Virus record (IMG/VR): IMGVR_UViG_3300027969_000097 | Location: 734-64,733 of that record | Direction: 5' to 3' (one strand) | DNA length: 64,000 nt | From: a virus | Taxonomy: Duplodnaviria; Caudoviricetes | Part shown: in pieces, positions 20,501-52,863 of the stretch | How positions within the stretch are numbered: position 1 is the first letter of the stretch | How the letters are laid out: each line of letters begins with the position of its first letter | Position numbers and translations under genes: made by a program | The notes under the pieces: model-generated | The model's input: only the letters and a program-made list of their open reading frames with translations | Database searches by the model: none | What the model was told of the DNA's origin: nothing

Positions 20501-23500
20501 GGTGGACGTATGCGAGCCACTAACGGCAACACATCATATGGTAGTTACGGTGTTATTGCTGAAGGTTATGACATAACCGAAACTCCTATTGCTGGTAAAG
20601 TATTCAACCAGTCAAGTCAAGTGCAAGCAAATGTTCAAAGTAGCTTTGGTAGTAACGCTCAACTTCTAAAAGTATTATACGGAAATGCCGGTTCAAACTA
20701 TAACCAAACAACTACCAATATGTTTAGTTACAGTAATGCATTTACCAACGCGGCATGGTCTGGCGACAGTAATATTTCATTAACTAAAAATTCTGCAAGC
20801 CCTATTGGAACTGGAACAGATGCTTGGTCTTTAACTGGCAATACTGCTAATACTGGCGAAAATTATATTGCACAAACTGTAACTATTGCACCGGCAGGAG
20901 CATTATATTCCAACGTTGGCGCTGTAAATATTTCAGGTTCAGGTTCTGCCGCAACATTTAACGTTACTGTAACTAGTACAGCTTATCTTGTAACAGTTAA
21001 CACAGGTGGTAGCGGATATGTTGGCGGCGGCGCAGGTGCTGGTAATCAACTATACATTGCAGGTAGTCAATTAGGCGGAGTTGACAGCGTAAACGACTGT
21101 ATTATTACTGTAGATACACTAGCAGGTAGTAGTATTTTAACAGTAATTGTTTCTGGCACAGTGCCAGCAGGTAGTGCATTAAGTTATACAGCAAGTGTGT
21201 ATGTGAAAAAAGGTACTGCTGTTTCTATTGACATGCAAGCAATATTTACTGGCTCAAGTTCCAAAACTAGCCAAATATCTTACACATTTGATACAAATAC
21301 AATTCTTTCTTCTAATGCTACAGGAGGATTCCTCCCAACGCAATATGGTGCAACTGCAACTGCGGTAACAGGGTGGTATAGATTATGGTTTGCATTTAAT
21401 GATACCCTTGGTTTGAATAATAGTTTACAAATTAGAATTTATCCTAAAGGTTATAGTGGAATTGCAGGCGCATATTCTTATATATACGGAGCTCAATTAG
21501 AATTATCATCTGCAACATACACTCCAAGTTTTTATCTAGATAACTTGTCAACAAATAAATTTACAACTTATGCAAATTACACAGTAGTCGGCGCAGGCTC
21601 GGGTGCAGTTTTAGTAGGCGATGAATTGAGATCTAAAGCAGTATTTGAAACTCGTGTAGTTGCAGATTCATCTGGCGGCGTTGGCGGTAATGGATATTTA
21701 ACTGCAAGTAACAATGCACAGTCTGGCACAACAACTTATGTACAGTTAGCACAGTCAGATGTAAATCTTGCTTCTAACTATGTAGGTATGCGTGTGTTTA
21801 TCAATAGCGGAACAGGTGCTGGGCAATACGGATATATTTCTTCATATGACTCGAGCACTAAAATTGCATACGTATTAAAAGAAACATTTGACGCTGTAGG
21901 AATTACAAATACATCTTCTAGTGGGAATTTATTAACACTTGGCGGCAGTTACAATACTGCTCGATTATACGTTGGCCAGCCTATACAATTTATTCCAACA
22001 TATTATACAGCAACTATTACAGGAACATCACTAGCTCAAACTTCTATCCTTACAATTACTGGCGGAGTTACTAATACAATATTAGTAAGCTCAACAGTTG
22101 GTATGTATGTTAACATGCCGTTTAGTGTTAGTGCAAGTACAAGTACATTGCTAGCAGGATATACATATTATGTGTTCAGTATTAATCCAGCCGATCCAGT
22201 TACTGGATTATACCCAACTAATACTATCCAAGTTACAAATCAATTGTTTGGAAATCTATGGCAATTAAATAGTGTACCAACTGTAGCTTCAATATACATG
22301 AACTTTACATCGAACACAGGTTACTTGACATCTAATACTACAAACATGTCAGTTAATTTGCCAATACAGTTTACTGGTCAAGCACAAGGCGGCCTAACAG
22401 CCGGCACAACATATTATATTCAAGATGTAATCGATGCTACTAACTTTACTATATCTGCTAACTTAGTAAATGTAACAGTTACAAGCACAACAAGTCCTAG
22501 TACACTCACAGTTACAGTTGGAACAGCGGCCAATTTAACTCCATTGAATCCAATTGTGTTTACAGCAGGTGCTGGCGCAATATTTGGAGGAGTTACCGAA
22601 GGTCAGAAATATTATATTAGTAAAATCTTAACAGGTTCTACTTTTGCAATAGCAACTAGTGTTATTACTGCAACTATTACAGCAACATCGTCAGGAACAA
22701 ACTTGATTGTTACCAGCGACACAAGCCAATTTGTAGTTAATAATCCTATTATATTTACTGGTACAACTTTTGGAAACATTGTAGCAGAAACAATTTATTA
22801 TATACAAGTTATTAATAGCGGCACTACATTTACTATTAGTCAAACTCCAGGTGGCGGCGCACTAGGATTACAAGACAAGACTGGAGTTGTAACAGCAAGA
22901 ACTTGCCCAGCATCGTTCACAGGTATTACTACGGCGGCTAGTGGCACAATGACAGGCTCAAGTACTGCTACTAAACGAGTAGTTACTGTATCGGCAAATA
23001 GTAGCATGAACGCTACTTGGTCTACTACAGTATTTGGTAACGTTGTTATTGGTACAACATACTATGTTAATACAATTGATAGTGGCGCAAATCAAATAAC
23101 AATTACTACTGTACAAAACAGCGGTAGCGCATTTACTTTACAAACTAAAGCTGGATCAATGAACCTAGCCGCAGTAGGATGGGATCATGTAAGCCCAGGA
23201 ACTGCACCAGTAGCAAGTTTGGATTCTTCAAGTAGTTATTTTATAGAACCAAGAACAACTTATAGCGAGCCTACATTTACACAAATTGCGGCCAGCACAG
23301 TTATTGCTTTGGCTAGCCCAACAGTGTATTCACAGATAGCATATGGTAATGGATATTGGTTAGCAGTTCCAAACGGAAATGCTATAGGTGCTAGATCTGT
23401 TGACGGCAATACTTGGACACAAGTAGTAATGCCGGTGGCATTAAACTATTCAGGAGTTGCATACGGTAACGGATATTTTGTTACCATTAATGCAAACGGC

Positions 23501-25897
23501 ACCACCGCGGCATATACTAAGTCAAATGGAATAGGTTGGAGAACTACTACGTTACCAACTAACACTGCCTGGAACGCTATTACGTATGGCAACGGTGTAT
23601 TTGTTGCTGTAGGATCTACAGATACCACTGCGGCATATTCTATAAACTCAGGCGCGACTTGGACCTCAACATTATTAAAAGCATCTAATACATTTACTGC
23701 ATCGGGAAATGCTCAGTTAAGTACTGCACAAAAACAATTTGGAACAGCAAGTTTATATCTTGACGGCACTACTAATACTTTTATATCCAGCCTAGCAAGT
23801 GATGATTTTGGAACAACTAGCAGTCAAGACTTTGCTATTGAATGTTTTGTTAAGTTTTCTGCAATCAGCGGATCGCAACCAATTTTTGATACACGCACCA
23901 ACGGCACTGAAGTAGCATTAACATTAGATATTAGCGGCGGCGGTCTACTGCGATTGTTTGTCAATGGTGCGTATGTAATTACAGGCAACACAGTAATTAC
24001 AACTGCATGGACACACGTTGCGGTAACTCGTAGTAACGGTACAACTAGTTTGTTTGTTGGCGGAGTATTACAATCAACAACATATTCAGATACAAACGTG
24101 TATCTTGCCCGCCCACTAAGAATTGGAGCGTACTATAATGGTAGTCCTATGACTGGTTATATTGATGAATTTAGAATTTCTAAAGATGTTAGTCGATATC
24201 AAGCAACATTCACTGTGCCAGTAACAGAATTTACTAACGATTCTAACACTGTAACGTTGTTACATTTCAACGGTGCCAATGCAAGTACTAGTATGTTAAG
24301 TACTATCATCAAAGGTACAATGAGTTGTTTAACTTATGGCAACGGACGATTTGTTGCACTTGCTACTGGATCTAGTATTGCTCATTATAGCTCAGATGGA
24401 ATTACATGGAATTCTACAAACTTGCCGGTGTCTAGCACTTGGGCTAGCGTTACTTACGGTAACGGATTATTTGTAGCAGTGTCTAGCGCAATAGCACCAG
24501 CTGTTGGATCTGTTTATAGTACAGATGGAATAACTTGGTATAGCTCTAATATTCCAGTATCTGCAGATAAGATTGCTTACGGCCAAGGAGTGTTTGTAGC
24601 AGTTCGCTCGGCCAGTACAGTTAGCTATATTGGTGATGGAGGTGGCGACTGGAAAATTAAAACTATTTCAAATAGTGCTTATAGTGCTATGACATTTGGT
24701 TATCAATCTACTAGCAAGATAGGAGTGTTTGTAACACTTGCTGGACAAAATAGTGGTAGCAGAATTTATGCAGGTATTACTGCTAAAGGCAGAGCAATCA
24801 TCACCAGTAACGTTATTACATCTTTAAGTGAATGGGAACCAGGTTCTAATTATGTTGTTGCATCAACAGGAACTAACGCTCCTCCTACAGTAACATTTAC
24901 CGATCCAAACGTAACTACACTTGCTACTGTAACTCCGCGTCTTGGCACCGGAGCATTAGGTAACCCTGCTTTCTTTAATAAAGGAACTGGCTACAGTAGT
25001 AATTCAACAATTATTACTATTACTGGTAACGGCTATTCTGATGCTTATCAAACAGGTCTAAGTATTATTTTGTATGATTTAACAAGATTGCCACAGCCTG
25101 GAGATAACTTAACAATTACAGGCGTAAGTCAGATTTATAAAGTTACAAGTTCAACCGCTATGTTTGGAACTACTGCTCCAAACATTGAAGCTAACGTACA
25201 AGTAAGTCCTGAAATTACAACAGCAAATAGTCCAGCACAAGATGTACTTGTAAGTATTAGAACAAAATATAGTCAAGTACGTTTAACAGGGCATGACTAT
25301 TTAAATATTGGTTATGGAACACAAGCAGAAGCTAATTATCCAAACTTGCCAACTGAAACTGGACTAGAACCCCAGAATCAGCAAGTTGAGGTTAACTATG
25401 GCCGTGTGTTTTATACGTCAACCGACCAAGACGGTAACTTCTTAGTTGGCGGATTATTTGGTGTTCAACAGGCAACTGGTATTGTTACACTAAGCGCAAG
25501 TCAATTTGGATTAAGCGGCTTGAATACGTTGAGTTTGGGTGGTATCGCTGTTGGTGGTTCTAGTGTTATTATTACACAGTTTAGTACAGACGGCACATTT
25601 ACAGCAAACAGTGACAGCATTCTTTCAACACAACGAGCAATTAAAACATACTTGACTGCTCGTTTAAGTCAAGGCGGATCAAACACATTTACTGGACAAT
25701 TGATAGCAGGTACAGTGCTAGTTGGAGGTCCAAACTTAATTGCTAGTTCAATTCCAAACGGAACTACTGGATCAAATGTTAAGGTATTAAACGTAATGAA
25801 TTTCTGTGGAACAGCAACAAACCCGCGTACAGACTCGTTAGTAGACGGTAATATGGTAGCTCAGAACTTCTTCTATAAGCACTTCTTCCACAGATAA
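17528..25897 (+). CDS. giant multidomain virion/fibre protein (2789 aa): CBM5/12-like Trp repeats, beta-helix (pectin-lyase-like), YGNG propeller repeats, LamG-like domain
   Basis: W...Y..GD.V.YGG..Y.C...H repeats; DMFRLRNGSGLRN...SPYIQNVT; YGNGxFVAV repeats; FGTASLYLDG...WTHVAVTR...GYIDEFRIS (about 23690-24290). Confidence 0.8.
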   Translation: MAAEFKINRLRFTWAGPWTASTFYNRDAVVSYNGKTYVCLVPNTSSNSFNADLNYTTPGGASTPYWGLVVDGRVWKQAWTASTYYFTGNIVTYGGTVYNCITQHTSTISFDATKWTTISQSSAWRTNWTTNTNYGIGDVVKYGGIVYQCNTLHTSASTTILGLENLGIDLPKWTIINKGLDYKGAWVSNARYKAQDIVKVGPDLYLANVGHSAMTFNSSAEWTLWVPGIEFAGTWDSATVYQTGDTASYGGYAYVSATQNNTNNIPSVDAVDWVLLTLGYTIGGEWSNGLPAKIGTIVTRGGRLYVAIADNLSEDPTAISLSTTYTASGSSGTTIKVASSTGVQPGMNVIGVGFTLGQSVSRVVNSTTIVLDRSPDGTVIDAQSLTFVGVNYTYWQMVVPGSTWNNRWTVGTEYTLGNIVVWKNGTYRCIQRHTASAVSNRPDVDVMNSYWSLVVAHHRKNASTTTGDIEIYNGTTGAYDVLPIGTNSYTLRSTSGNPTWSHLNAINAVYYVAPSGTDSSSSGWGQTWDKPWKSIKFACDYIESGTYNPLAKIALTNAKEWLAQEIYNFCLYNKNNNIAPFTSSSVFDADKTKRDVRLIVDAVVYDISRGGNSQTVAATLSYFKTGSADQLLNAGITSQITYFVSAYTYLRSLIISNAFTGTAPALNYQVLNSQSTIVSQPALGGSSVEAQAVVDTTTLLTILIDALTNVNTTKVPAANSGATATVMVKTGTYSETLPIVVPANVAINGDELRGAVVQPATIYNGIIKGTTISETVGEGISSATLSTITALSTANLVIGEPIQFGTTTGNIAAFTTYYIHGVWSNTKFSIKTTATGNTALTLTTTALGLSIVAYGGQALRDMFRLRNGSGLRNLTVTGLLGFLGNTNVNGTARPTGGSFACLDPGTGVDDTKTWIVRRSPYIQNVTTFGYGCTGMKIDGALHNGGNKSMVANDFTQIISKGIGVWCTGAGALTEIVSVFAYYGYCGYFAEDGGRMRATNGNTSYGSYGVIAEGYDITETPIAGKVFNQSSQVQANVQSSFGSNAQLLKVLYGNAGSNYNQTTTNMFSYSNAFTNAAWSGDSNISLTKNSASPIGTGTDAWSLTGNTANTGENYIAQTVTIAPAGALYSNVGAVNISGSGSAATFNVTVTSTAYLVTVNTGGSGYVGGGAGAGNQLYIAGSQLGGVDSVNDCIITVDTLAGSSILTVIVSGTVPAGSALSYTASVYVKKGTAVSIDMQAIFTGSSSKTSQISYTFDTNTILSSNATGGFLPTQYGATATAVTGWYRLWFAFNDTLGLNNSLQIRIYPKGYSGIAGAYSYIYGAQLELSSATYTPSFYLDNLSTNKFTTYANYTVVGAGSGAVLVGDELRSKAVFETRVVADSSGGVGGNGYLTASNNAQSGTTTYVQLAQSDVNLASNYVGMRVFINSGTGAGQYGYISSYDSSTKIAYVLKETFDAVGITNTSSSGNLLTLGGSYNTARLYVGQPIQFIPTYYTATITGTSLAQTSILTITGGVTNTILVSSTVGMYVNMPFSVSASTSTLLAGYTYYVFSINPADPVTGLYPTNTIQVTNQLFGNLWQLNSVPTVASIYMNFTSNTGYLTSNTTNMSVNLPIQFTGQAQGGLTAGTTYYIQDVIDATNFTISANLVNVTVTSTTSPSTLTVTVGTAANLTPLNPIVFTAGAGAIFGGVTEGQKYYISKILTGSTFAIATSVITATITATSSGTNLIVTSDTSQFVVNNPIIFTGTTFGNIVAETIYYIQVINSGTTFTISQTPGGGALGLQDKTGVVTARTCPASFTGITTAASGTMTGSSTATKRVVTVSANSSMNATWSTTVFGNVVIGTTYYVNTIDSGANQITITTVQNSGSAFTLQTKAGSMNLAAVGWDHVSPGTAPVASLDSSSSYFIEPRTTYSEPTFTQIAASTVIALASPTVYSQIAYGNGYWLAVPNGNAIGARSVDGNTWTQVVMPVALNYSGVAYGNGYFVTINANGTTAAYTKSNGIGWRTTTLPTNTAWNAITYGNGVFVAVGSTDTTAAYSINSGATWTSTLLKASNTFTASGNAQLSTAQKQFGTASLYLDGTTNTFISSLASDDFGTTSSQDFAIECFVKFSAISGSQPIFDTRTNGTEVALTLDISGGGLLRLFVNGAYVITGNTVITTAWTHVAVTRSNGTTSLFVGGVLQSTTYSDTNVYLARPLRIGAYYNGSPMTGYIDEFRISKDVSRYQATFTVPVTEFTNDSNTVTLLHFNGANASTSMLSTIIKGTMSCLTYGNGRFVALATGSSIAHYSSDGITWNSTNLPVSSTWASVTYGNGLFVAVSSAIAPAVGSVYSTDGITWYSSNIPVSADKIAYGQGVFVAVRSASTVSYIGDGGGDWKIKTISNSAYSAMTFGYQSTSKIGVFVTLAGQNSGSRIYAGITAKGRAIITSNVITSLSEWEPGSNYVVASTGTNAPPTVTFTDPNVTTLATVTPRLGTGALGNPAFFNKGTGYSSNSTIITITGNGYSDAYQTGLSIILYDLTRLPQPGDNLTITGVSQIYKVTSSTAMFGTTAPNIEANVQVSPEITTANSPAQDVLVSIRTKYSQVRLTGHDYLNIGYGTQAEANYPNLPTETGLEPQNQQVEVNYGRVFYTSTDQDGNFLVGGLFGVQQATGIVTLSASQFGLSGLNTLSLGGIAVGGSSVIITQFSTDGTFTANSDSILSTQRAIKTYLTARLSQGGSNTFTGQLIAGTVLVGGPNLIASSIPNGTTGSNVKVLNVMNFCGTATNPRTDSLVDGNMVAQNFFYKHFFHR

Positions 25898-25948: not shown

Positions 25949-28900
25949 ATGGCAGAATTTAAACTAGGTAGAATTAAGTTTGTTTATCAAGGTGCATGGA
26001 GTCAAAACTTTGCATACGTAGTGGATGACGTGGTTACTGTAAGCGGTAAAACCTACATTTGCGTGGTAAGTCATACTTCTACAAATACAACAACTGGATT
26101 TGCTACAGATTTAGCTTTCAATCCAACCAAGTGGAATATTGTTGCTGAAGGCCAACTATGGCGCGGAAGCTGGACTAACAACACGTATTATAATTCAGGC
26201 GACTTAATTCAATACGGCGGATTAGTTTATACTGCTAACACAGCACATACTAGTGTTGCTACTAACGCACCATTAACTGTAACAGGCGCATCTGGATCAG
26301 GGTCTGTAGTTACCATTACGTTTGCGTCACAAATTGTTCAGCCGTTTTTAGTTGGATCCAGTATTACAGTTGCAGGCATTACTACTACTGCCAGTGGATA
26401 TAATGCAACCGCAACTGTTACAGCATGTACAACAACTAGTGTAAGTTATGCAAATGCTACTAGTGCAACATATACAAGCGGTGGTACTATTGTTGGTACA
26501 CTACAAACAGGTTTAGAAACAGATCAAAGCAAGTGGGATGTATTTGCACAAGCATTTAGTTGGAATAATGCATGGGCAATCAATACACGTTATAAAGTTC
26601 GTGATTTAATTTATTATGGCGGACAAACTTATGTTTGTAATGCCGCACACGTTTCAGCAAATACTCTAGCACTTGGCCTTGAAAATGATCAAAGCAAGTG
26701 GGACTCATTTAATGCTGGATTTTTATACACAGGTAATTTTGCAGGTAGCACACGTTATAGATTAAACGATATCGTTCGTTACGGTGCTGACTTATGGATT
26801 TGCACAACTCAACACTCAAGTACTTCAACTTTTGATGATACTAAATGGAGTATCTTTGTTAACGGATTCCAATTTGAAAATAGTTGGACTGGCGGTACAA
26901 CATACCAAATAGGTGATATGGTTACATATGGTGGCAACACATATACTGCTATACAAAACCATAGTACTGTTCAAATTCCAAGTACAGCAACAGCTTACTG
27001 GCAACCATACACCTCTGGTTTTACTTACCAGGGCGATTATGCAGTAGCAACAGCATACAAAATAGGAAGCGTTGTTCGCACAGGCGGTTATACATACCTA
27101 GCATTGGTTGATAATGTACAAGCGGTTGTACAAGTTGTATCAACTACTAGCGGAACTAACGTAATTAATTTAGCCGGTTCATTAAATATTACAGCGGCTA
27201 GTGTAACATCAACTACTGCCACATTAACGTATGCAAGTCAGCCAAGTATTCCATTTGTAGTTGGCCAAACTATCGTTGTTGCAGGTGTAACTAACACAGC
27301 ATACAACGGAACATTCACAGTAACTGGTTCTCCCACTACAACTCAAGTACAATATACATTGTCTGGTTCTCCAGCAAGTTCAAGTGGTGGTACAGTAACA
27401 TCAACAACTAGCGGATTAATTGTTAATGTTCCTATCAACGTTGCATCTAACGTTGGAAATTTATTAACAACAAGTACATACTATGTACGTACAATCAATG
27501 CCACATCATTTACAGTTGGTACAACACCAAGTGCAGGCTCAGATTTTACTTTGGCCACAACTACTGCACAAACAGTAGCGGCAACAACAGATCCAAGTCC
27601 TCCATTTGCAACATACTGGACTCGTTTAAATTCTGGTATTCGTTGGAACGCACAAGCACAATCGTTTACTGGATTGTCTGGAACTAACATTATTGGTACT
27701 GGCTCAGGCGCAACCTTTAACGTCACAGTATCAGGAACAGTTTATACTGCGACAGTTGCAGGCGGCGGAACAGGTTACGCATCTACAAACACATTAAAAA
27801 TTCTTGGTACAAGTTTAGGTGGTATTACACCAGCAAACGATTTAACAATTACAGTTAATACAGTATCTAGCGGTGTTATTCAAGCATTAGGTATTAGCGT
27901 TAGTGGCCAATCGGTAACATGGAAAACTGGCACAGCGTATGTATTAGGTGATGCAGTATTTTTTGGCGCAAATAGTTATATTTGCGTATTGGCGCATATT
28001 GGCGCATCGGGCAATCGTCCTGATGCAGATACAACAGCTACTTATTGGAACTTGTTAGCCAGCGGAAGTGAGCCAGCAGTTTTAACAACACAAGGCGATA
28101 CATTCTTTTACGGTGTAAATGGTCCAACACGTTTACCAGTTGGCTCTGACGGACAAGTACTACGTGTAAGCGGAACTCAACCAGCTTGGCAATATTACGG
28201 TATCATTAATAATCTAGTATATGTTGCTCCTAGCGGAACTGACACATTAGGTAACGGGCAAGGATTAACCATTGACAAGCCATGGCAGACTGTACGTTAT
28301 GCGGCTAAACAAGTAGAAGATGGTTATCAAAATACTAGTGCGGCAATGTTACTTGCAAAAAATAAACAATTTATTTTAAAAGAAGTTTCAAATTATGTAA
28401 CTTATACTTACAAAGCTAGTGTAACAGGCACAAACACTGGAGCATTTACAACAGGAAATACAAGTGGGTTGTCTGTAGGAATGCCAATTAGATTCAGTGC
28501 GCAAACAGGCAGTATGACTATTGCTACGGTTGCTATCAGCAACACTACAACATATTATGTTCAATCAATTACAGCAAATGCAAGTTTCACAGTAGCATCT
28601 ACATATAACGGATCGGCATTAACTGCGGCTGGAACAGGTACTGCTACTGTTAGTTATTATACAAGTTTAGCAAGTGAAATTGAACGTGATGCAGGTTATG
28701 TGCTTGACGGTGTAATTTTTGACGTAAGCCACGGCGGCACAGCAAAAACTGTAACCAATGCTCGCGCATATTTAAATTCTGCTGGAACAGGATACATCAA
28801 CACTGCTACACAAAGTCAAATTCCACAATTTGTTGGCGCACAAACATACATGTCAACTTTAATTGGCAATGTATTAGCAAATACAGTACCTAGTAGCAAT

Positions 28901-31900
28901 TATCAAACATTAAACAGTGTGGGTACAGTTGCAAGTCAAATAATTGACACAACTTTAACAGCTGAAACTGGATCAACAGCGTTAGCACAATCATTAATTA
29001 CAATCGTTACTAATGCGCTAACAGCAGGAGTGTCAACAAATATTCCTCCAGCAAGCCAACCAAATACTACTATTAGTGTTAAGACAGGTACATTTAACGA
29101 AGTATTACCAATTGTTATTCCAAGCAATACTGCAATCGTCGGTGATGAATTGCGTAGTACTGTTATTCAACCACAAAGTGCTATTCCAGCATTGGTTAAC
29201 GATAAATCAAAATCTATTAATGCGTTAAACAGAGTTAAAGCAATTGTATCAAGTGTTATGGCTAATACAGCAGTAACTCCTAGTGCAAGTCACGCATACT
29301 CTTTTGCAACATTGACTGCAACTAGCACTGGCGGTACAAGCACAATTACATTTGCGTCGCAGGCAACTGCTCCATTCGTAGTAGGTCAAAAGATTACAGT
29401 TAGTGGCGTTACACCAGTAGGATTTAACGGATCTAAAACAGTAACAGCTTGTACAACTACTAGTGTTTCGTTTACTGGCGGCACCGCCGGCCCACAAACT
29501 ATTGCAGGTATTGTTACTAATCAAGACACAAGTTTGCCAGCAGGCGATACTGGAAGTTTAGCCGCAACAACAAGCGTTGTTACCAATGTAAACTTAATGC
29601 AAGACATGTTGTTGAATGGACAAGCACAACAAATTGCTTACACATTTACTAATCCATCTAACTATAACACAACGTACTTAGGTGGGTTTGGCGATGGTAA
29701 AGCACAGATTGTACAAAACTATCAATTTATTAAAGATGAAATATCAGCTTTCTTAAACACAAACTATAATGCAGTGTGGACAGCATTAGGCGGCACAGGA
29801 CAGGCACTATGTCAACGTGACGTTGGATATTTGCTAGATGCATTGCAATACGATATGACTTATGGTTGTAATAATCAAAGTTTAATTGCAGGCTCGAGCT
29901 ACTATTCTTATTATGTATTAACTATTGCGCAAACAGAAAAAGTAGCTACAGTAGCGGCTTATAAACGTCTACAACAAGTTGTAAGTCAAATTGTTACTAA
30001 AGCATCAGTAGTTGTAAGTGCTGGTAACAGCACATCGCAAGTTACATCAGGATCTGCAGGTAGTGTAACTGCCGCGGCTTTTGCGGCAGAACGTATTGGA
30101 GATACTGTATATTATCTTAACAACTCTAACGCTAATTCAAGTACTTGGGTTGGTACAGGAACTATTGCTACAACCGTACTAACATTGACAGCGGTGGCAA
30201 GTGGAACAGTGGTTCCTGCAACAGCAATAACAGGCACAGGTGTATCAATTGGTACATACATTATAGCACAAGCAACATCAACGGCAAGTGCAATAGCAAG
30301 CCCTACGTATGCAAGCGGCGGCACTTCAGGCGCACAAACATTTGTAGTAAGTAGTGCGACTGGTATTGTAGCCGGCCAATTAGTTGTTGGTACTGGTGTA
30401 CCAGCCGGTTCGTATGTTATTTCTTCATACACATCTGGTACAACAATTACATTAGTTGACTACTGGGGAAATCCAGCGTTGTTAACCACGCAAGCAACTG
30501 GTACATATAATTTTTACACACCAGGCGGCGTTGGAACTTACAATATTAACGTAAGTCAAACAGTAACTCCTGCAATAACCATCACTGGCTCAAGCACAAT
30601 TACTCCAGTAACAAGCGGTGCTATTAGTCTAGCAACAAGCGCATTACAAGCATCATTTAATTTAGTACAAGCAAGAAAAACTGAAATTCAATCAGATGCA
30701 ACAGTATGGGTACAAAAGTTCTATCAAACTTTAGCGTTCAATACTACTACTTGTTATAGAGATGCTGGCTACATTGTTGATGCGTTAAGTTATGACTTTG
30801 CATTAGGCACAAACTTTAACAGTATTATTTCAGCTAAATCATATTTTAGAGCTATTAGTTCTGCCCAAGTTGTTATTAATACTCAGTTAGCGGCCGAAGT
30901 AGGATCTATTAGATTTATAGGTTATAAGATTAGATCTATTGCAGGCGCAGGATCTGTTGTTCAAGTACAAAATCTTGTTGATGACATTAACGAATATGTT
31001 GTTGGCGGAGCAGTTCCTCGCTTCTTTACATGGCCTGATTATACAGGTATTAGTGCTAACCCAGCGGCCGCGGCCAAAGTTATTTGGCGCAACAAGGCAT
31101 TTATCCAAGCTGAAATTTCATCATTCTTAAGTACAAACTACAGTAGTGTTTGGACAAGTATTGTTCAAGCAACCTGTACACGTGACATTGGATATATTGT
31201 AGATGCTATCCGCTACGATTTAACATATGGCGGCAATTCTGCAAGCAAACAAGCTGGTATTGCATATTATTCACGTTTGACTTCTGGATTCCAAATTGCT
31301 GGAACAGAAAAAGTTGCTACACTAGCGGCATATACATTGTTAGGAACATTGGTTAGTGCTATTGCACAGAACGGTGCTTATAGCGCATTACAAGGTACTG
31401 TAAGTCGTGTATCAGCAACTGCATATGGTACAGGAACTGAAGGTACTGCGGCGGCCGCATTAGTAACTATTGTTTATAATTATGTGGATCTTGGACTAAC
31501 ATCTGGCGCTCCACAAATTACAATTACAACTATTGCAGGTACTACTACATTTACTAGCGGCACACACGGATTGGCTATAGGCGATGAAGTTATTCCGCAA
31601 ACAACTGCTAACGGTTTAGTTGCTGGAACAATTTACTATGTTGCATCTATTCCATTAGGAACAACGTTTACATTAGCCGCAACATGGGGCGGCGCGGCTA
31701 TAACAACATTTACTAACGGTACTGGATTAAGTATTGTTGCAGAAAAGACAAATAATCCAAGCATAAGTTGGGTAGCTACTACATTAAAAGATAGCACAAC
31801 AACAATGTTAGGTTCTAAGTCTGCACTGCAAACAAGTATAACTTCTTATATTTCGACTAACTATCCAAACTTAGTATATAACAGTGCTACCTGCCAACGT

Positions 31901-34900
31901 GACATTGGATATGTGCTTGATGCAGTCGCATATGACTTTATGTTAGGTACTAACTTTAAAACTATTAAAGCCGCCATGGCATACTATCAAGCACAATCTG
32001 CTGTGGTAATTGCTTCGCAAAAAATGGCTACGTATTCAGCGTTTGGACAATTACAAACCTTGTTACAAACTACACTAGCAACAAATCCAACAGCACTAGC
32101 TAGAATGAACGCTGTTATGGCTACATTCCTTGCTATTGTAGATAAAGGTGTTGGAGAAACTCCGGAAATTAATGGTACATTAACTTACAATAATTCATTG
32201 TCTACTATTCAAGGCGCCGAAGTATTACGTGCTAACAAATCATTTATAGCATCTGAGTTAGCGGCTTTTACAACAGCTAGCTACGGCGGCACAGTAACTA
32301 CAACAACTGCTTCTACAGATTTGTTTACAGTGGGTGTAAATCATAACTTTACAGTTGGTGATCCTGTTGTATTTTCTGGAACGTTGATTACAAGTAGTGG
32401 TGTTACACTTGGAACAACTTATTATATTAAAACAATTCCAAGTCCTACAACATTCACAGTTAGTGCTACCAGCGGAGGAACTACAGTTGACGTTACTGCT
32501 AACGGTAGCGGATCAACAATGTTTGTACGATATTCATATTCATTAGCAAAATGTCTTCGTGATTCAAACTTGTTTATAGAAGCAATGGTTTATGATTTAC
32601 AATATCCGGGCAACTATAAATCACTACGTGCGGCAGAATTATATGTTAATGCTGTTAAAGGTTCACAAGCATCAGACATGTTCCGTGTACGTAACGGTTC
32701 TGGATTAAGAAACTGTACACTAAGCGGATTAAGTGCAGGAATGACCAATGCTAATAGTTACGGTACTAAACGTCCAATGGCAGGAGCGTTCGTTGCTCTC
32801 GATCCAGGCTTTGGACCAAACGATAGCAATGTATGGGTCAACACTCGTTCACATTATTCACAAAACGTAACAATGTTTGGTACAGGATGTAGTGGTGCTA
32901 AGATTGATGCGGCATTACATGCTGGTGGCAACAAATCAATGGTTAAAAACGACTTTACAACAATTATCAGTGATGGTATTGGAGTATGGTGTACAGGTGC
33001 TGGATCATTAACAGAATTAGTATCGGTGTTTAACTACTATGGTTACGCAGGTTATATGGCAGAACTAGGCGGACGTATCCGTGCTACTAACGGTAACAGC
33101 TCATATGGTACATATGGTGTTATTGCCGAAGGTGTTGATACTTACGAAACACCACTTTATGCAACAATTAACAATCGTTATTTTGGCGCACAAGTTACTG
33201 CTGTTGTAACAGATCTTACAAACAAGATTTTACGTTTTGAATATGGTAATGCTGGTAGTAACTATTCCAACGTTGTTCCAACAATTAGCGGATCTGGATA
33301 TAATGCTATCGCAGTCGGCGACGAATTCCGCGATGCGGCCTTGTTTGAAACAAGAACCATTGATAACAATGACGGCACAAGTACAAGCGTAGGTGGTACA
33401 AGTTATGTAACAGCAACTAACAGTGCTCAAAGTGGCGACAAATACAGTATTACAATTGCGGCCACTGATGCAGTATTAACTGGAGCATACAATGGTATGC
33501 GTGTTCAGATAACTGCTGGTTCAGGTGTTGGACAATATGCAAACATTTTAACTTACTTAAACGGCACCAAAGTTGCTCAAGTAGTTAAAGATAGTTTTGC
33601 AACATTAACTGTAACAGGAACTACTACCACAGTATTACAAGTAGCAAGTACAGCTACATTGTATTTGAACATGCCAATTTATCTTGGCGCAACAACCGGC
33701 GTGGCATTGTCGGCTAATACTTTATATTTTGTTAAGACTATACCAGACGGCACAACATTTACAGTATCGTCAACAAGCGGCGGCACGGCAATCACTGGTT
33801 TAACTGCAACAAGCGGTCAAACTATTAGTTTGTATGCGGCAGGATGGGATCATGTTGTTCCAGGAACTACTATTGTTAACGCAATTGACTTGACTTCTGG
33901 TTATATCATTGAACCACGCATTAGTTATACTAGCCCAGGATTTACTAGTGTTGCAAAAACAATGCCAGCAACAGCAACTTGGTCAGCGGCCGCATATGGC
34001 AATGGACGATTTGTTGCAGTGGCGGCAGGCAGTACATCAACAGGATATAGTACAGATGGTTTAACATGGGCAACTGCTGGAGCAAATACTGGAACTCAAA
34101 ACTGGGTTGACGTAATATATGCTGGTGGTGAAGGTGCTGTTGCTACAGCAGTGGTTGGCGGCTTTGGCGGTACAGCGGCCGTATTAACTGCGGTATTAGG
34201 CACAGGACTTACTGCTAATCAAGTTGTTAGTGTAACTATTGTTAACGGTGGCGCAGGATTTACAACTCCTCCAACTATTGTGTTTACAAGTGCTAGTGGT
34301 GTTGGTGCAACAGCAACGGCTACTGTATTGAACGGCGCAATTGCAAGTATAACAATGACAATTAACGGTTCAGGTTACTTGACAGCACCAACAGTTACAG
34401 CCGCAGTTGATCGTGTATCTAGTGTTACAATGAATAGTTGGGGTAAAAACTATTATGGAACTCCAACAGTGACATTTAGTAATCCAGGCGGCGTAACTAC
34501 TCAAGCATGGGCGGCTACTACATCGGTAGCTCAAGGCACATATTTACTTACTGTGGATCAAAACATCTACTTGGTAACAAGTTCAGCGACATCAACAGGT
34601 GCTACTAAACCAGTTCATACAACTGGAAGTGCGGCCAACGGTACAGCAACATTGCAATATTATGCAACAGCCGCGGCTGGTACAGCAGTGATGAGCAACT
34701 ATGGTGTTCAATCTATCACAATGACCAACTATGGAAACAGTTACTCGACTGTTCCAACGGTTACTATTAGAGATACAACAGCAAAATTTGTAACAATTGC
34801 TAACGGCGCGGCAGTAAGTGCATGGCAAGATGCTACAACACCAACAACAGCATGGACTGGTGGCGCTAGCACATCTTCTAAAACAGATTTGAATTCGCTA

Positions 34901-36808
34901 GCATACGGCGCAGGCCTATATATTGCAGTTGGCGGCACAAGCGGAACAGCAAGTGTTATAAGTTCTACAGATCCAACTACAGGCGGATCATGGGTAGATC
35001 GTTCAAGTAATATTAATACTGCAAATGCATTAAGTACAGGTTCTTGGACTGCAATCACTTACGGTGCAGGCACATTCCTAGCAATTAACGGCGGCGGCGG
35101 TAATAAGACAGCATGGTGTACTGGTAATCCTCAATCTTGGACAGCAGGCGGAAACTTGCCAGCAAGCGGAAACTGGACCAGTGTTGCTTACGGTAACGGA
35201 CGATTTGTAGCAATACAAAGTGGTTCTGCTGTAACTGCAATCAGTACAGACTTTGGCGTTACTTGGGTAAGTAGTCAAGCAAATGCATTCTCAGCACAGT
35301 TACCAAGCAGTCAAACATGGACTCGTATTAAGTACGGCCAAGGATTGTTTATGGCAATTGCGTCAAGCACTGCGGTGTGCGCTACAAGTCCAGATGGTAT
35401 TAATTGGACTGTTAGAGCAATGCAAAGTTCAAGCAACTGGTTAGCACTGGCATTTGGTAACCCAAATAATAATCCAACATGGATTGCGGCTTCTAATACT
35501 TCAGGTACACTTGGCCAATTTATTAAAACTGGTGCTCAGGCATTAGGTAGAGTAAAAGTTATTAGTGGAGTAGTTAATGAAGTTCGTACTATTGAACCAG
35601 GAAGCGGTTATTCAAAAGGTACTGCTACTGCTACAACAGTTACAACTAATTTAATTACAGCAGATCAAACATACAATTTAGTTGACAGTCAACCAATTGT
35701 GTTTACAGGTACAAGTGCAGGCGGCATTACTGCCAACACAACCTACTATGTTATTGGATCTACAATTACAAGTACACAATTTAAAGTTAGTTTAACAGCA
35801 GGCAGTGCAACAGCAATACCATTGACTACAGCAACAATTAGTATGTCATGGCAAGCTAGTCCAATTGCTACACAAACTGATCCTAACAAAGTTAAAACAG
35901 CCGCAATTACGCAACGTATGGGTAATGGAGTATTAGGCAATCCAAGTTTCCCTAACAGAGGTACTAATAATGCCACTGCTACTGCAAGCGTAGTAGGCGA
36001 TGGGTATAGCGATTTGTATCAAACAAGTAGCTTTATTAACGTGAGCGGATTATATAGCTTACCACAAGCTGGTGCAAACATACAGTTCTCAACACTATCA
36101 ACAAGCTATTATAAACTTGTTGCAGTAACTAATGTACTTGGTATTCCAGGAAACTATACAGCGCAGTTCCAAATTAATCCAGCATTGACAACTGCTACTG
36201 CTCCGATCCACGCAACATTAATTACTACTAAGTTGAAATACAGTCAAGTACGTTTAACTGGACATGACTTCTTGTACATTGGTACTGGCGGCAAGGATAA
36301 AACAAATTATCCATATGTTGACCCAACAACTGCTATACAAGCTAATCAACAATTGTCTAGTGGCGGTGGACGAGTGTTCTTTACTTCAACTGACCAGGAC
36401 GGTAACTTCAACGTTGGTAACTTGTTTGGAGTTCAACAGGCAACTGGTACTGCTACGTTGAACGCTAGTGCGTTTAACTTAGCTGGTCTACAGAGTTTGA
36501 CATTGGGCGCGGTAACATTGGGCATTGGCTCAGCTACAATTACTCAATTCAGTACAGATCCGTACTTTACAGCTAATAGCGATAACATTGTTCCAACACA
36601 AAAAGCTATTAAATCGTATATTACGGCTCAAATTGGTGGCGGATCAAGCTCACTAAACGTAAATACATTGACAGCGGGTCAAGTTTTCCTTGCAAATAAC
36701 ACTATTAGCAATACAACTGGCGCACAGATCAAAGTAACAAGTAAAATGAATTTCGTGGGCGGTATCGACGGATCACCCGTTGCCCTTGGATTCTTTATGC
36801 AACGATAA
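25949..36808 (+). CDS. giant multidomain virion/fibre protein (3619 aa), paralogue of 17528, with six helical (C)xRD repeats
   Basis: MAEFKLGRI N-terminus. Same Trp repeats, beta-helix, propeller and SQVRLTGHDFL...FTSTDQDGNF C-terminal block as 17528. Confidence 0.8.
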   Translation: MAEFKLGRIKFVYQGAWSQNFAYVVDDVVTVSGKTYICVVSHTSTNTTTGFATDLAFNPTKWNIVAEGQLWRGSWTNNTYYNSGDLIQYGGLVYTANTAHTSVATNAPLTVTGASGSGSVVTITFASQIVQPFLVGSSITVAGITTTASGYNATATVTACTTTSVSYANATSATYTSGGTIVGTLQTGLETDQSKWDVFAQAFSWNNAWAINTRYKVRDLIYYGGQTYVCNAAHVSANTLALGLENDQSKWDSFNAGFLYTGNFAGSTRYRLNDIVRYGADLWICTTQHSSTSTFDDTKWSIFVNGFQFENSWTGGTTYQIGDMVTYGGNTYTAIQNHSTVQIPSTATAYWQPYTSGFTYQGDYAVATAYKIGSVVRTGGYTYLALVDNVQAVVQVVSTTSGTNVINLAGSLNITAASVTSTTATLTYASQPSIPFVVGQTIVVAGVTNTAYNGTFTVTGSPTTTQVQYTLSGSPASSSGGTVTSTTSGLIVNVPINVASNVGNLLTTSTYYVRTINATSFTVGTTPSAGSDFTLATTTAQTVAATTDPSPPFATYWTRLNSGIRWNAQAQSFTGLSGTNIIGTGSGATFNVTVSGTVYTATVAGGGTGYASTNTLKILGTSLGGITPANDLTITVNTVSSGVIQALGISVSGQSVTWKTGTAYVLGDAVFFGANSYICVLAHIGASGNRPDADTTATYWNLLASGSEPAVLTTQGDTFFYGVNGPTRLPVGSDGQVLRVSGTQPAWQYYGIINNLVYVAPSGTDTLGNGQGLTIDKPWQTVRYAAKQVEDGYQNTSAAMLLAKNKQFILKEVSNYVTYTYKASVTGTNTGAFTTGNTSGLSVGMPIRFSAQTGSMTIATVAISNTTTYYVQSITANASFTVASTYNGSALTAAGTGTATVSYYTSLASEIERDAGYVLDGVIFDVSHGGTAKTVTNARAYLNSAGTGYINTATQSQIPQFVGAQTYMSTLIGNVLANTVPSSNYQTLNSVGTVASQIIDTTLTAETGSTALAQSLITIVTNALTAGVSTNIPPASQPNTTISVKTGTFNEVLPIVIPSNTAIVGDELRSTVIQPQSAIPALVNDKSKSINALNRVKAIVSSVMANTAVTPSASHAYSFATLTATSTGGTSTITFASQATAPFVVGQKITVSGVTPVGFNGSKTVTACTTTSVSFTGGTAGPQTIAGIVTNQDTSLPAGDTGSLAATTSVVTNVNLMQDMLLNGQAQQIAYTFTNPSNYNTTYLGGFGDGKAQIVQNYQFIKDEISAFLNTNYNAVWTALGGTGQALCQRDVGYLLDALQYDMTYGCNNQSLIAGSSYYSYYVLTIAQTEKVATVAAYKRLQQVVSQIVTKASVVVSAGNSTSQVTSGSAGSVTAAAFAAERIGDTVYYLNNSNANSSTWVGTGTIATTVLTLTAVASGTVVPATAITGTGVSIGTYIIAQATSTASAIASPTYASGGTSGAQTFVVSSATGIVAGQLVVGTGVPAGSYVISSYTSGTTITLVDYWGNPALLTTQATGTYNFYTPGGVGTYNINVSQTVTPAITITGSSTITPVTSGAISLATSALQASFNLVQARKTEIQSDATVWVQKFYQTLAFNTTTCYRDAGYIVDALSYDFALGTNFNSIISAKSYFRAISSAQVVINTQLAAEVGSIRFIGYKIRSIAGAGSVVQVQNLVDDINEYVVGGAVPRFFTWPDYTGISANPAAAAKVIWRNKAFIQAEISSFLSTNYSSVWTSIVQATCTRDIGYIVDAIRYDLTYGGNSASKQAGIAYYSRLTSGFQIAGTEKVATLAAYTLLGTLVSAIAQNGAYSALQGTVSRVSATAYGTGTEGTAAAALVTIVYNYVDLGLTSGAPQITITTIAGTTTFTSGTHGLAIGDEVIPQTTANGLVAGTIYYVASIPLGTTFTLAATWGGAAITTFTNGTGLSIVAEKTNNPSISWVATTLKDSTTTMLGSKSALQTSITSYISTNYPNLVYNSATCQRDIGYVLDAVAYDFMLGTNFKTIKAAMAYYQAQSAVVIASQKMATYSAFGQLQTLLQTTLATNPTALARMNAVMATFLAIVDKGVGETPEINGTLTYNNSLSTIQGAEVLRANKSFIASELAAFTTASYGGTVTTTTASTDLFTVGVNHNFTVGDPVVFSGTLITSSGVTLGTTYYIKTIPSPTTFTVSATSGGTTVDVTANGSGSTMFVRYSYSLAKCLRDSNLFIEAMVYDLQYPGNYKSLRAAELYVNAVKGSQASDMFRVRNGSGLRNCTLSGLSAGMTNANSYGTKRPMAGAFVALDPGFGPNDSNVWVNTRSHYSQNVTMFGTGCSGAKIDAALHAGGNKSMVKNDFTTIISDGIGVWCTGAGSLTELVSVFNYYGYAGYMAELGGRIRATNGNSSYGTYGVIAEGVDTYETPLYATINNRYFGAQVTAVVTDLTNKILRFEYGNAGSNYSNVVPTISGSGYNAIAVGDEFRDAALFETRTIDNNDGTSTSVGGTSYVTATNSAQSGDKYSITIAATDAVLTGAYNGMRVQITAGSGVGQYANILTYLNGTKVAQVVKDSFATLTVTGTTTTVLQVASTATLYLNMPIYLGATTGVALSANTLYFVKTIPDGTTFTVSSTSGGTAITGLTATSGQTISLYAAGWDHVVPGTTIVNAIDLTSGYIIEPRISYTSPGFTSVAKTMPATATWSAAAYGNGRFVAVAAGSTSTGYSTDGLTWATAGANTGTQNWVDVIYAGGEGAVATAVVGGFGGTAAVLTAVLGTGLTANQVVSVTIVNGGAGFTTPPTIVFTSASGVGATATATVLNGAIASITMTINGSGYLTAPTVTAAVDRVSSVTMNSWGKNYYGTPTVTFSNPGGVTTQAWAATTSVAQGTYLLTVDQNIYLVTSSATSTGATKPVHTTGSAANGTATLQYYATAAAGTAVMSNYGVQSITMTNYGNSYSTVPTVTIRDTTAKFVTIANGAAVSAWQDATTPTTAWTGGASTSSKTDLNSLAYGAGLYIAVGGTSGTASVISSTDPTTGGSWVDRSSNINTANALSTGSWTAITYGAGTFLAINGGGGNKTAWCTGNPQSWTAGGNLPASGNWTSVAYGNGRFVAIQSGSAVTAISTDFGVTWVSSQANAFSAQLPSSQTWTRIKYGQGLFMAIASSTAVCATSPDGINWTVRAMQSSSNWLALAFGNPNNNPTWIAASNTSGTLGQFIKTGAQALGRVKVISGVVNEVRTIEPGSGYSKGTATATTVTTNLITADQTYNLVDSQPIVFTGTSAGGITANTTYYVIGSTITSTQFKVSLTAGSATAIPLTTATISMSWQASPIATQTDPNKVKTAAITQRMGNGVLGNPSFPNRGTNNATATASVVGDGYSDLYQTSSFINVSGLYSLPQAGANIQFSTLSTSYYKLVAVTNVLGIPGNYTAQFQINPALTTATAPIHATLITTKLKYSQVRLTGHDFLYIGTGGKDKTNYPYVDPTTAIQANQQLSSGGGRVFFTSTDQDGNFNVGNLFGVQQATGTATLNASAFNLAGLQSLTLGAVTLGIGSATITQFSTDPYFTANSDNIVPTQKAIKSYITAQIGGGSSSLNVNTLTAGQVFLANNTISNTTGAQIKVTSKMNFVGGIDGSPVALGFFMQR

Positions 36809-37168: not shown

Positions 37169-38230
37169 ATGGCACGATTTAATACAACAATTCCAGTAGC
37201 AACGGGTAGCGGTGCTCAATCACTTGGTACAACCAATCAAGGTTCGATATATACTATTACAGGCACTGCACCGTTTACAGTTACTATTGGTGATCCACTG
37301 TACTTACTTGGACAAAGTCAAGTATTGTATAATACAACAAGTGGCGATGTCACAGTTCAATCTAGCGGATCTGGAGTATTTGTAGGGCCGGGCGCAAGCG
37401 GATCTAGCAGTCAAATTATGCCAGCGGGTAGTTTGTTATGTGTTACCAGCAATGGTACTAATTGGATTGTACAATTTGACGGTGGCGGTAACTTAGTAGC
37501 AGGAACATTGAGCGCAAGCAAAGCAGTTACATTGAGCCCAGCAAGTGCTAACGTAACAATTAGTCCAAGCGGTAGCGGTAATATTATTATTAATCCAGCA
37601 GGAACATTAGCTAACAATACTATTGACAACGTAACAATTGGTGCAACAACACGTGGATCTGCGCTATTTACAACATTGGGTGCTAACGGTGCTGTGACAT
37701 TAAGTCCAGCCGCATTAGTTACAATTAGCCCAACAGGCGGATTAACTATTGCTCCAAGTAGTGTAACTGGTACAATGGACAACGTAACAATTGGTGCAAC
37801 AACACGTGGATCTGCGCTATTTACAACATTGGGTGCTAACGGTCAAGTAAGTTTTACAGCAGGTACTACTTCAAGCACTACCGGCACAGGTACTATTGTT
37901 GTTACTGGTGGTGTTGGTGTTTCAGGTCAAGTTACTTGTGCAACACTAGTTGAAACTTCAAGTATTGCATTTAAAGAAAACGTACAACCACTAACAAACG
38001 CTTTAGATGTAGTTATGCAATTAATGGGTGTAACATACGATCGTAAAGATAATCATAAACATGAAGCTGGTTTAATTGCTGAAGAAGTATTTAAATTTGC
38101 TCCAGAACTAGTTAGTTTAGATGCCGATGGCAAGCCATACGGAATTCAATACACCAAGTTAGGTGCTTATCTAGTTGAGTCTATCAAAACACTTAAAGAA
38201 GAAATTAACTTGTTAAAAGGTATAAAATAA
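37169..38230 (+). CDS. tail fibre protein with C-terminal intramolecular chaperone (peptidase S74-like)
   Basis: ETSSIAFKENVQPL (Ser/Lys dyad), GLIAEEV..PELV, terminal coiled coil. Confidence 0.8.
   Translation: MARFNTTIPVATGSGAQSLGTTNQGSIYTITGTAPFTVTIGDPLYLLGQSQVLYNTTSGDVTVQSSGSGVFVGPGASGSSSQIMPAGSLLCVTSNGTNWIVQFDGGGNLVAGTLSASKAVTLSPASANVTISPSGSGNIIINPAGTLANNTIDNVTIGATTRGSALFTTLGANGAVTLSPAALVTISPTGGLTIAPSSVTGTMDNVTIGATTRGSALFTTLGANGQVSFTAGTTSSTTGTGTIVVTGGVGVSGQVTCATLVETSSIAFKENVQPLTNALDVVMQLMGVTYDRKDNHKHEAGLIAEEVFKFAPELVSLDADGKPYGIQYTKLGAYLVESIKTLKEEINLLKGIK
37625..37843 (+). repeat. exact 66-bp direct repeat (37625-37690 and 37778-37843)
   Basis: GACAACGTAACAATTGGTGCAACAACACGTGGATCTGCGCTATTTACAACATTGGGTGCTAACGGT twice, 153 bp apart (DNVTIGATTRGSALFTTLGANG). 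Confidence 0.9.
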
Positions 38231-38231
38231 A

Positions 38232-39296: not shown

Positions 39297-39309
39297 TAAG
39301 AGAATATAA

Positions 39310-40440: not shown

Positions 40441-40452
40441 TTAGAGAAAAAT

Positions 40453-43759: not shown

Positions 43760-43764
43760 AATAT

Positions 43765-43772
43765 TACTTATA
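43765..43772 (-). promoter_or_regulatory. late-like promoter TATAAGTA, leaderless to halogenase 1
   Basis: 5 nt before ATG 43759, no SD. Confidence 0.5.
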
Positions 43773-43798
43773 TTATTTTCTGCCTCTAGTTCAAATTT

Positions 43799-43806
43799 CA
43801 TAAATA
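43799..43806 (+). promoter_or_regulatory. late promoter CATAAATA, leaderless to ATG 43812
   Basis: 5 nt before the ATG, no SD. Divergent from the 43765 promoter. Confidence 0.55.
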
Positions 43807-43811
43807 TTGTC

Positions 43812-47073: not shown

Positions 47074-47083
47074 TTATATTTTC

Positions 47084-51486: not shown

Positions 51487-51499
51487 TTAAAATCCTTTA

Positions 51500-52737: not shown

Positions 52738-52757
52738 TTAAACATCCTCTTGTAGGA

Positions 52758-52765
52758 TATTTAAC
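52758..52765 (-). promoter_or_regulatory. late-like promoter GTTAAATA for the leftward halogenase/oxygenase operon
   Basis: In the divergent intergenic gap, upstream of the GAGGA RBS. Confidence 0.5.
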
Positions 52766-52838: not shown

Positions 52839-52863
52839 CAAAAACTAATCAACGGAGTATTTC

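Follow-up and report, generated by a model that had tools for sequence, protein, structure and literature searches.

The DNA analysed here (hereafter the window) is a stretch of 64,000 nucleotides, positions 734 to 64,733 of the IMG/VR virus record IMGVR_UViG_3300027969_000097, a 64.7-kb viral fragment with an estimated completeness of 18%. PHROGs searches identified it as the structural gene block of a T4-like myovirus, with genes for the portal, the prohead protease, and the major head protein, sheath-associated genes and several fibre-like genes. Two adjacent giant open reading frames (ORFs) on the plus strand encode the proteins that we call P0001 and P0002, in which a helical module with a C-x-R-D motif occurs six times and once, respectively. 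Our analysis indicates that these modules very probably descend from the same stock as the phycobiliproteins of photosynthetic antennae, and that their conserved site may bind a linear tetrapyrrole (bilin).

The tail-fibre family phrog_9851 was matched by both P0001 (E of 2.6e-132) and P0002 (E of 7.7e-132), and the two genes are located between the head genes and further fibre-like genes, which places both products among phage tail fibres. The two proteins have 15 BLASTP segments in common, and Pfam recognised in them only N-terminal CBM_5_12 repeats, plus Laminin_G_3 in P0002. From its N terminus, P0001 consists of the CBM_5_12 repeats, the start of a beta-helix, the six phycobiliprotein-like modules (M1 to M6) and a C-terminal fibre domain; the opposite strand under it has no ORF of at least 150 residues. 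The positions of the modules and their parts are given in Table 1.

Table 1. Coordinates in the window of the two giant fibre proteins and their modules.
Feature	Position	Strand	Basis
P0002, 2789-aa paralogous fibre protein, one Cys-less module	17528..25897	+	ORF, translation, Pfam, PHROGs, BLASTP
P0002 single Cys-less module, residues 549-708, Thr-Lys-Arg-Asp	19172..19651	+	Motif and A2 profile
P0001, 3619-aa giant tail-fibre-type protein	25949..36808	+	ORF, translation, Pfam, PHROGs
M1 first part, residues 794-827, profile positions 12-45, long helix N..FI..E	28328..28429	+	Relaxed A2 hmmsearch, E 3.5e-5
Beta mini-domain inside M1, residues 828-903	28430..28657	+	Alignment A3
M1 second part, residues 904-1030, Cys-less Ile-Glu-Arg-Asp	28658..29038	+	A2 profile, 37.4 bits, E 2.1e-11; motif
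M2, residues 1240-1396, Cys codon 29810	29666..30136	+	Motif and A2 profile
M3, residues 1556-1691, Cys codon 30752	30614..31021	+	Motif and A2 profile
M4, residues 1694-1853, Cys codon 31175; module used for folding	31028..31507	+	Motif, A2 profile, AlphaFold2, fold searches
M5, residues 1934-2072, Cys codon 31892	31748..32164	+	Motif and A2 profile
M6 first helix, residues 2086-2120	32204..32308	+	Relaxed hmmsearch, E 0.0039 (weak)
M6 C-x-R-D helix and next helix, residues 2195-2240, Cys codon 32552	32531..32668	+	A2 profile, 27.4 bits, E 2.6e-8

An initial annotation of this DNA had described the repeats from the letters, and the motif copies are where it put them, six in the larger ORF and one in its paralogue. 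Scanning all six frames of the window with the pattern RD...[LIVF][LIVF][DE][AG][LIVM].[YF]D gave seven matches, every one inside P0001 or P0002, with the motif Arg codons at nt 28685, 29816, 30758, 31181, 31898 and 32558 in P0001 and 19307 in P0002; 5000 residue shuffles of P0001 gave none. Five of the seven copies have a Cys two residues ahead of the Arg, at exactly the codons first reported, and in the two Cys-less copies that position is taken by Ile (M1, near 28680) and Thr (P0002). Two profiles were used to extend these matches: A1, made from five window units, and A2, made from 63 related modules that include M2 to M5 and the P0002 copy and exclude M1 and M6. All seven window modules were recovered by hmmsearch with A2, the scores of M2 to M5 and the P0002 copy (84 to 173 bits) being partly a matter of construction because these modules belong to the profile. 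Since P0001 compared with itself by BLASTP showed no repeat pair at E≤1e-3, the repeats are recognisable by profile only.

All six helical repeats annotated in P0001 were found by motif or profile, but they are not all continuous or complete. Between the first long helix and the C-x-R-D helix of both M1 and M6 lies a Thr/Gly-rich beta mini-domain of about 75 residues (at about 32309-32530 in M6), and M6 is a partial module (profile positions 13 to 47 and 42 to 87) that runs into the beta-helix. The M1-type insert is absent from L022 and from the P0002 copy (alignment A3), the latter being 40% identical to M1 over 171 residues by BLASTP. Mini-domains similar to these inserts also separate other modules. 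As a further observation, the modules alternate between two subtypes, M2 and M4 reading 'YD.TYG[GC]N' with a helix N..FI..E...F, and M3 and M5 reading 'YDF.LGTNF' with a helix K..[IL]Q; the nine modules of L002 alternate likewise, a pattern that recalls alpha/beta pairing.

In phycobiliproteins, the bilin is attached at Cys84, with Arg86 and Asp87 at the pigment site. When the A1 profile was compared with the PDB sequences at E≤10, 26 of the 27 matches were alpha chains of phycocyanin or phycoerythrin (lowest E, 0.0044), and with A2 all 23 matches were phycobiliprotein alpha chains (best E, 0.0084). The alignments span the preceding helix through the C-x-R-D helix and put the Cys, Arg and Asp of the modules on the bilin-attachment motif. 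The same three residues were aligned when A2 was compared by hhalign with 12 CpcA and 12 CpcB sequences from cyanobacterial genomes (probability 84.8%, E 6.5e-6, 95 columns), so that in five of the seven window modules the C-x-R-D occupies the Cys84 attachment position column for column. Among multi-module homologues, 11 of 29 (4 of 14 plus 7 of 15) matched the phycobiliprotein family PF00502 above its gathering cut-off of 22.2 bits, at 23.7 to 72.9 bits, and in homologue P0077 the alignment reached positions 30 to 153 of 155. A single module taken from G010, a large phage relative described below, scored 30.6 bits on its own. TIGR01338 (the NCBIfam model C-phycocyanin-alpha) matched five of six homologues with E values of 1e-10 to 1e-4 at scores far below its equivalog cut-off, which makes the homologues relatives of CpcA and not CpcA.

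For the fold, M4 was modelled by AlphaFold2 from the 63-row alignment, which gave seven helices with a predicted local distance difference test score (pLDDT) of 92.6 and a predicted template modelling score (pTM) of 0.89; the fold evidence is this predicted model, and M1, M6 and the P0002 copy are assigned by profile match only. Foldseek against the PDB returned rows that were all phycobiliproteins or 8u0f, with TM scores of 0.54 to 0.70. Realigning the Foldseek candidates with VIA-align gave Z scores of 15.7 to 14.2 and root-mean-square deviations (rmsd) of 2.2 to 3.4 Å over 123 to 143 residues, the best being 2vjh_B (Z 15.7, rmsd 3.3 Å, 136 residues), and all 50 rows were phycobiliproteins save 8u0f ('bacterial fluorescent protein'). 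Residues 2 to 153 of the model align to residues ~24 to 177 of the phycobiliprotein chains. In a search independent of Foldseek, over 48,161 chains, ranks 1 to 8 (Z 14.4 to 12.3) went to phycobiliprotein-family chains, the ApcE bilin domain among them, followed by photocobilin globins (12.1 and 11.0), sensor and stressosome globins (11.2 to 8.2) and haemoglobins (at most 7.8), an order that agrees with the globin phylogeny in PMC10151467. A look-alike search of the ESM Atlas reached a top score of 0.86 and yielded no useful family.

The predicted M4 model thus has a phycobiliprotein-type globin fold, and the reading of the repeats as tandem globin/phycobiliprotein-like domains on a virion appendage, which the initial annotation had put forward, is borne out by the agreement of this model with the PDB profile matches, the CpcA/CpcB alignment and the PF00502 matches of the homologues. 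We conclude with high confidence that the repeats belong to the phycobiliprotein branch within the globin superfamily and are homologous to PF00502. Each module is a core of six to seven helices equivalent to phycobiliprotein residues ~24 to 177, minus the X-Y hairpin, and the modules, which directly follow one another or beta domains, are strung as beads in the two giant tail-fibre proteins between the start of the beta-helix and its later rungs.

Several results weigh against this membership and have to be set beside it. The window's own best match to PF00502, at 31154-31309 in M4, reached 12 bits (E 0.006), which is under the cut-off; P0001 and P0002 gave no PF00502 match at E≤0.01, and the five single units gave no Pfam match at E≤10. 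The single match of residues ~1218-2284 to PDB sequences by phmmer was a ribosomal protein (E 2.8), and none of the Foldseek rows for the M4 model had an E value of 0.001 or less. The X-Y hairpin, the N-terminal element of alpha-beta assembly, is absent from the modules. If chance or convergence were at work, an unrelated helical repeat with C-x-R-D-x-G-Y would have drawn AlphaFold2 to the phycobiliprotein fold, and the borderline E values of single modules against the PDB sequences, the low PF00502 score in the window and the fold-search tool's own remark that helical models can score Z ~14 by chance are all in keeping with this. However, the matches outrun the motif, as the PF00502 alignment in P0077 and the 95 hhalign columns demonstrate, the curated Pfam threshold is passed in homologues, and the descending order of structural matches, from phycobiliproteins through photocobilins and sensor globins to haemoglobins, follows the published phylogeny. 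We therefore regard such a coincidence as very improbable.

The window modules belong to a large family. Among 1.84 billion proteins, the A1 profile matched 1277 cluster representatives at E≤0.001, of which 490 reached E≤1e-30. Single proteins had as many as 36 modules, and the module-bearing proteins measured 830 to 6382 residues; candidates for stand-alone modules were limited to 8 short matches (88 to 280 residues), all from contigs of 4.9 kb or less. Conservation was read from 152 proteins, the best 150 of the family plus the window's two, a sample biased to module-rich proteins. Across its roughly 1600 modules, whose mean identity is about 30%, the Cys is kept in 94%, the Arg in 95% and the Asp in 99%, and to these the family adds residues of its own, Asp63 (99%), Tyr79 (98%), Asn69 (80%) and Asp58 (78%). 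Within A2, the invariance of the Arg and Asp is by construction, because Arg-Asp was required by the pattern that selected its modules.

In Cys-bearing modules (n=1493), the Arg is present in 97.5%, the Asp in 100% and Tyr79 in 99.7%, compared with 64.4%, 80.0% and 68.9% in the Cys-less modules (n=90), whereas Asp63 (99.7 versus 97.8%) and Asn69 (79.6 versus 83.3%) are unchanged; related modules are not independent of one another in these counts. The Cys/Arg/Asp/Tyr79 site behaves as a unit across the modules. Exactly one Cys is found in 1276 of 1583 modules, and no column other than column 49 exceeds 6.1% Cys, so the Cys is well conserved and in most modules has no partner for a disulfide within its own module; a Cys poorly conserved or disulfide-paired, or a fold that is not globin-like, was what the initial annotation had named as counting against its reading. 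A disulfide within the module was rejected on the same count, and haem binding was rejected because His is not among the three commonest residues in any of the profile columns 1 to 100.

A source of pigment was looked for in related phages. The major head proteins of three large viral records, among them G010 (399.8 kb, 100% complete), are 84 to 85% identical to that of the window; the one of the cyanophage S-PM2 is only 36% identical to it. G010 encodes a bilin reductase, a heme oxygenase (hemO) and a 5-aminolevulinate synthase (alaS) along with 41 modules, of which 39 have the Cys and 33 read CxRD; its PF00502 matches are confined to giant ORFs, and its hemO and reductase genes lie tens of kb or more from the fibre modules and do not adjoin the fibre genes. 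Of 18 records with a close relative of the G010 reductase, seven have modules: all but one of the eight that measure 128 kb or more, and not one of the ten fragments of 86 kb or less. The hemO gene was found in all five large reductase-bearing records tested and also in G002, alaS in four of seven, and hemO together with a bilin reductase in the relatives G002 and G006 to G010. Searches found psbA in none of 13 relatives and a GAF/phytochrome-type acceptor in none of five. With alaS, hemO and reductase in these relatives, the lineage fits the phages with such genes described in PMC11480375, which calls the purpose of these phage catabolic genes 'still enigmatic' and gives acceptors like the bilin biosynthesis-associated globins (BBAGs) as one possibility. 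BBAGs are distant phycobiliprotein relatives in non-photosynthetic bacteria whose genomes carry hemO and a bilin reductase, and BBAG-1 and -3, which have CXRD, attach bilins with no need of lyases, according to PMC10151467.

Beside hemO and the reductase gene (2048-2728) of a relative, L028, we noted ORFs resembling DnaK, Hsp20 and ClpS, names that come from reading the translations and not from a family search.

On these grounds we predict, tentatively and with a chance that we put just short of even, that the conserved module site binds a bilin. A linear tetrapyrrole would be held on each Cys-bearing module by a thioether to the Cys, with the Asp and Arg gripping its pyrroles and propionates, as in phycobiliproteins and BBAG-1 and -3. 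The pigment could come from the phage's own alaS, hemO and bilin reductase genes, as seen in the relatives whose capsid protein is 84 to 85% identical, and its attachment would be autocatalytic, because no lyase was found. As a part of the adsorption apparatus, a fibre pigmented in this way would respond to light or protect against it.

The modules could instead be a phycobiliprotein-like globin recruited as a rigid fibre bead, with the Cys, Arg, Asp and Tyr forming a buried network of packing and hydrogen bonds and no pigment at all, which we consider a quite possible explanation although we lean towards doubting it. Much of what counts against a pigment speaks for such reuse. Phycobiliproteins do not share the Asp63, Asn69 and Asp58 of the modules, whose polar network could thus be structural; the X-Y hairpin has been lost; M1 and the P0002 copy have no Cys, like 90 of 1583 modules in the family; and the relatives lack bilin lyases as far as these were searched (CpeT in 0 of 13, CpeS in 0 of 10; the E/F-type was not searched). 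The window's own record, 18% complete, has no bilin reductase (hemO was not searched there), and in G001, 71% complete and with modules, none of hemO, reductase and alaS was found. Modules occur without a phage reductase in six complete cyanophages, while bilin genes occur with 0 modules in Mosig (complete genome, phage of a heterotrophic host, with hemO and reductase) and in P-SSM2 (reductase). A general link between reductase and modules was accordingly rejected, the 14 complete isolate genomes dividing into 6 with both, 6 with modules only and 2 with reductase only. Bilin genes and modules are thus separable, which removes their co-occurrence as proof, and the co-occurrence in the jumbo phages counts about once and not as independent evidence, because the records are one lineage. 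The module-only cyanophages do not refute binding, since cyanobacterial hosts supply bilins themselves. Moreover, no publication on cyanophage particles that carry pigment came up in full-text literature searches.

If the modules only had to build the virion, however, a lone Cys kept in nearly all of them at such low mean identity would be unusual. The residues retained are exactly those of the bilin triad, and their loss is shared, whereas Asp63 and Asn69 persist. The isolates in which the domain was seen are phages of bilin-making hosts only, and the uncultured lineage that has the modules carries alaS, hemO and reductase. The Cys might also serve another chemistry, such as binding a metal or some ligand other than a bilin, or linking fibre chains or modules covalently, as one reactive Cys per module, the CxED, CxQD and CxDD variants seen in G010 and cyanophages, and the extra Asp, Asn and Tyr residues that could make a metal or sugar site would allow. 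No second conserved Cys is available for a disulfide, the absence of His from the three commonest residues of each profile column makes globin-type haem ligation unlikely, and all of the closest relatives in structure bind bilins, which together render this explanation improbable.

The occurrence of the modules in cultured phages bears on what a pigmented fibre might do. A tblastn search of 50,697 phage records with a seven-module homologue matched 255, of which 251 are named for cyanophages or their hosts; by name the 255 are Synechococcus (192), Cyanophage (49), Prochlorococcus (10) and 'Marine' (4). By profile, the modules number 11 in ACG-2014j, 9 in S-PM2, 7 each in S-RIM32 and S-H9-2, 6 in Sf-FR1, 4 each in DSL-LC03, P-HM1, P-HM2 and S-SSM4, 3 each in Syn9, P-RSM4 and P-SSM4, and 2 each in P-SSM3 and P-SSM7, and the same profile found none in P-SSM2, P-SSP7, P-GSP1 or the pelagiphage Mosig. 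The cyanophage copies retain C-x-R-D or C-x-D-D and sit in genes whose products are annotated as tail fibres or virion structural proteins, the Syn9 homologue, for example, as 'virion structural protein, putative fiber'.

Two of these fibre loci have further peculiarities. In S-RIM32 (L109, NC_031235, 1-12453), the gene of the 4021-residue 'short tail fiber' protein, which bears modules, has a CpeT-like gene ~1.8 kb upstream; five tRNAs and a 2-oxoglutarate (2OG) oxygenase gene lie between them, and the closeness could be chance. In S-PM2 (L117, NC_006820, 166300-170300), 14 tRNA features fall inside the coding sequence of the 'short tail fiber protein' (165928-177267), though a frame of 3792 residues is open there; the overlap looks like a coordinate slip in the annotation of the record.

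Light-dependent adsorption has been reported for some of the same phages. According to PMC6628666, P-HM1 and P-HM2 show no adsorption in the dark, P-SSM2 adsorbs in the dark less than in the light, and P-SSP7 and P-GSP1 adsorb in the dark; work cited there found adsorption of S-PM2 to be light dependent and independent of host photosynthesis. Module presence tracks this reported phenotype in all six phages, S-PM2, P-HM1 and P-HM2 having modules and P-SSM2, P-SSP7 and P-GSP1 having none. These six amount to about four independent lineages; P-HM1 and P-HM2 are near-identical, and two are podoviruses without such fibres at all. The match is a lead, not evidence. A sensor role is also argued against by the BBAG holoproteins, which are photoinactive according to PMC10151467. 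It seems unlikely to us, although worth stating, that the fibres of the giant phages and of cyanomyoviruses such as S-PM2 and P-HM2 are bilin-pigmented light receptors for light-dependent adsorption and that the alaS-hemO-reductase cassette in phages of non-photosynthetic hosts serves virion pigmentation.

The surroundings of the two giant genes in the window were also mapped. After P0001 come four more fibre-like genes (37169-41553), the first of which (37169-38230) has a Peptidase_S74 intramolecular chaperone domain, and the other three are paralogues matching phrog_2295, with Pfam Gly_rich_2 also in 38232-39296. Just downstream (42296-54260) lies a cluster in which halogenase and 2OG-Fe(II) oxygenase genes are interleaved, comprising four Trp_halogenase-family genes (PF04820, 265 to 321 bits), all on the minus strand (42296-43813, 45595-47073, 48383-49939 and 49936-51486), four oxygenase genes (44423-45034, 44976-45602, 52864-53475 and 53472-54260) and a DUF6445 gene (47084-47761). 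The 2OG oxygenases may modify virion proteins; genes for such enzymes also adjoin the S-RIM32 fibre gene and the hemO-reductase genes of Mosig. A GroEL-type chaperonin is encoded by the phage at 55404-57074 on the minus strand (phrog_5725, E 1.7e-142).

What is new here is a phycobiliprotein-type domain with a strongly conserved attachment triad, arrayed in up to 36 copies in virion fibres; full-text literature searches, judged by title and abstract, found no paper describing phycobiliprotein-like domains in phage fibres. If the modules bind bilin, both the role of alaS, hemO and the reductases in phages of non-photosynthetic hosts and a light sensor in the light-dependent adsorption of cyanophages become testable. 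If they bind nothing, they show clearly how the fold of an antenna protein was taken over as a structural bead, and even without pigment they constitute a large domain family that has not been curated.

Globins of the phycobiliprotein type were known from antenna subunits, to which the small BBAG proteins were added in 2023. The closest counterparts among viruses are the fibre proteins of cultured cyanomyoviruses (S-PM2 p091, Syn9 gp101, P-HM2 PHM2_096 and S-RIM32 gp226), which have the same modules and a fibre or virion annotation; they are 22 to 38% identical to the window's protein, and their phages have genomes of 170 to 200 kb and bilin-rich hosts, unlike the window's phage lineage of ~350 to 400 kb, in which no psbA was found. 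Photocobilin and photoglobin globin domains also bind bilin and supply the next-best structures (8j2w_B, Z 12.1; 8j2y_B, Z 11.0), and the photoglobin-type motif CxQD named in PMC10151467 occurs in one G010 module; photocobilins differ in being fused to B12-binding photoreceptor domains, of which the window's proteins have none. BBAGs, compared here through their published description (PMC10151467), resemble the modules as phycobiliprotein-type domains with CXRD outside an antenna context, but they are small, stand-alone proteins clustered with a reductase gene, whereas the modules occur inside giant proteins. Light-harvesting phycobiliproteins (C-phycocyanin alpha and beta, phycoerythrin and allophycocyanin; PF00502) share with the modules the globin-like helical core and the helix on which the C-x-R-D lies, and no other structures match the M4 model as well. 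They are, however, stand-alone subunits of ~160 to 180 residues, whereas the modules are fused within giant virion proteins, lack the X-Y hairpin and any linker or phycobilisome context, have their own invariant Asp63, Asn69 and Tyr79, and in the window score below the PF00502 cut-off. The core-membrane linker ApcE is a known protein that likewise holds a phycobiliprotein-like domain within a large multidomain chain (4xxi_A, Z 14.1, rmsd 3.4 over 122 residues); it has one such domain per protein and works in a photosynthetic antenna, whereas here the domains form tandem arrays in a phage fibre.

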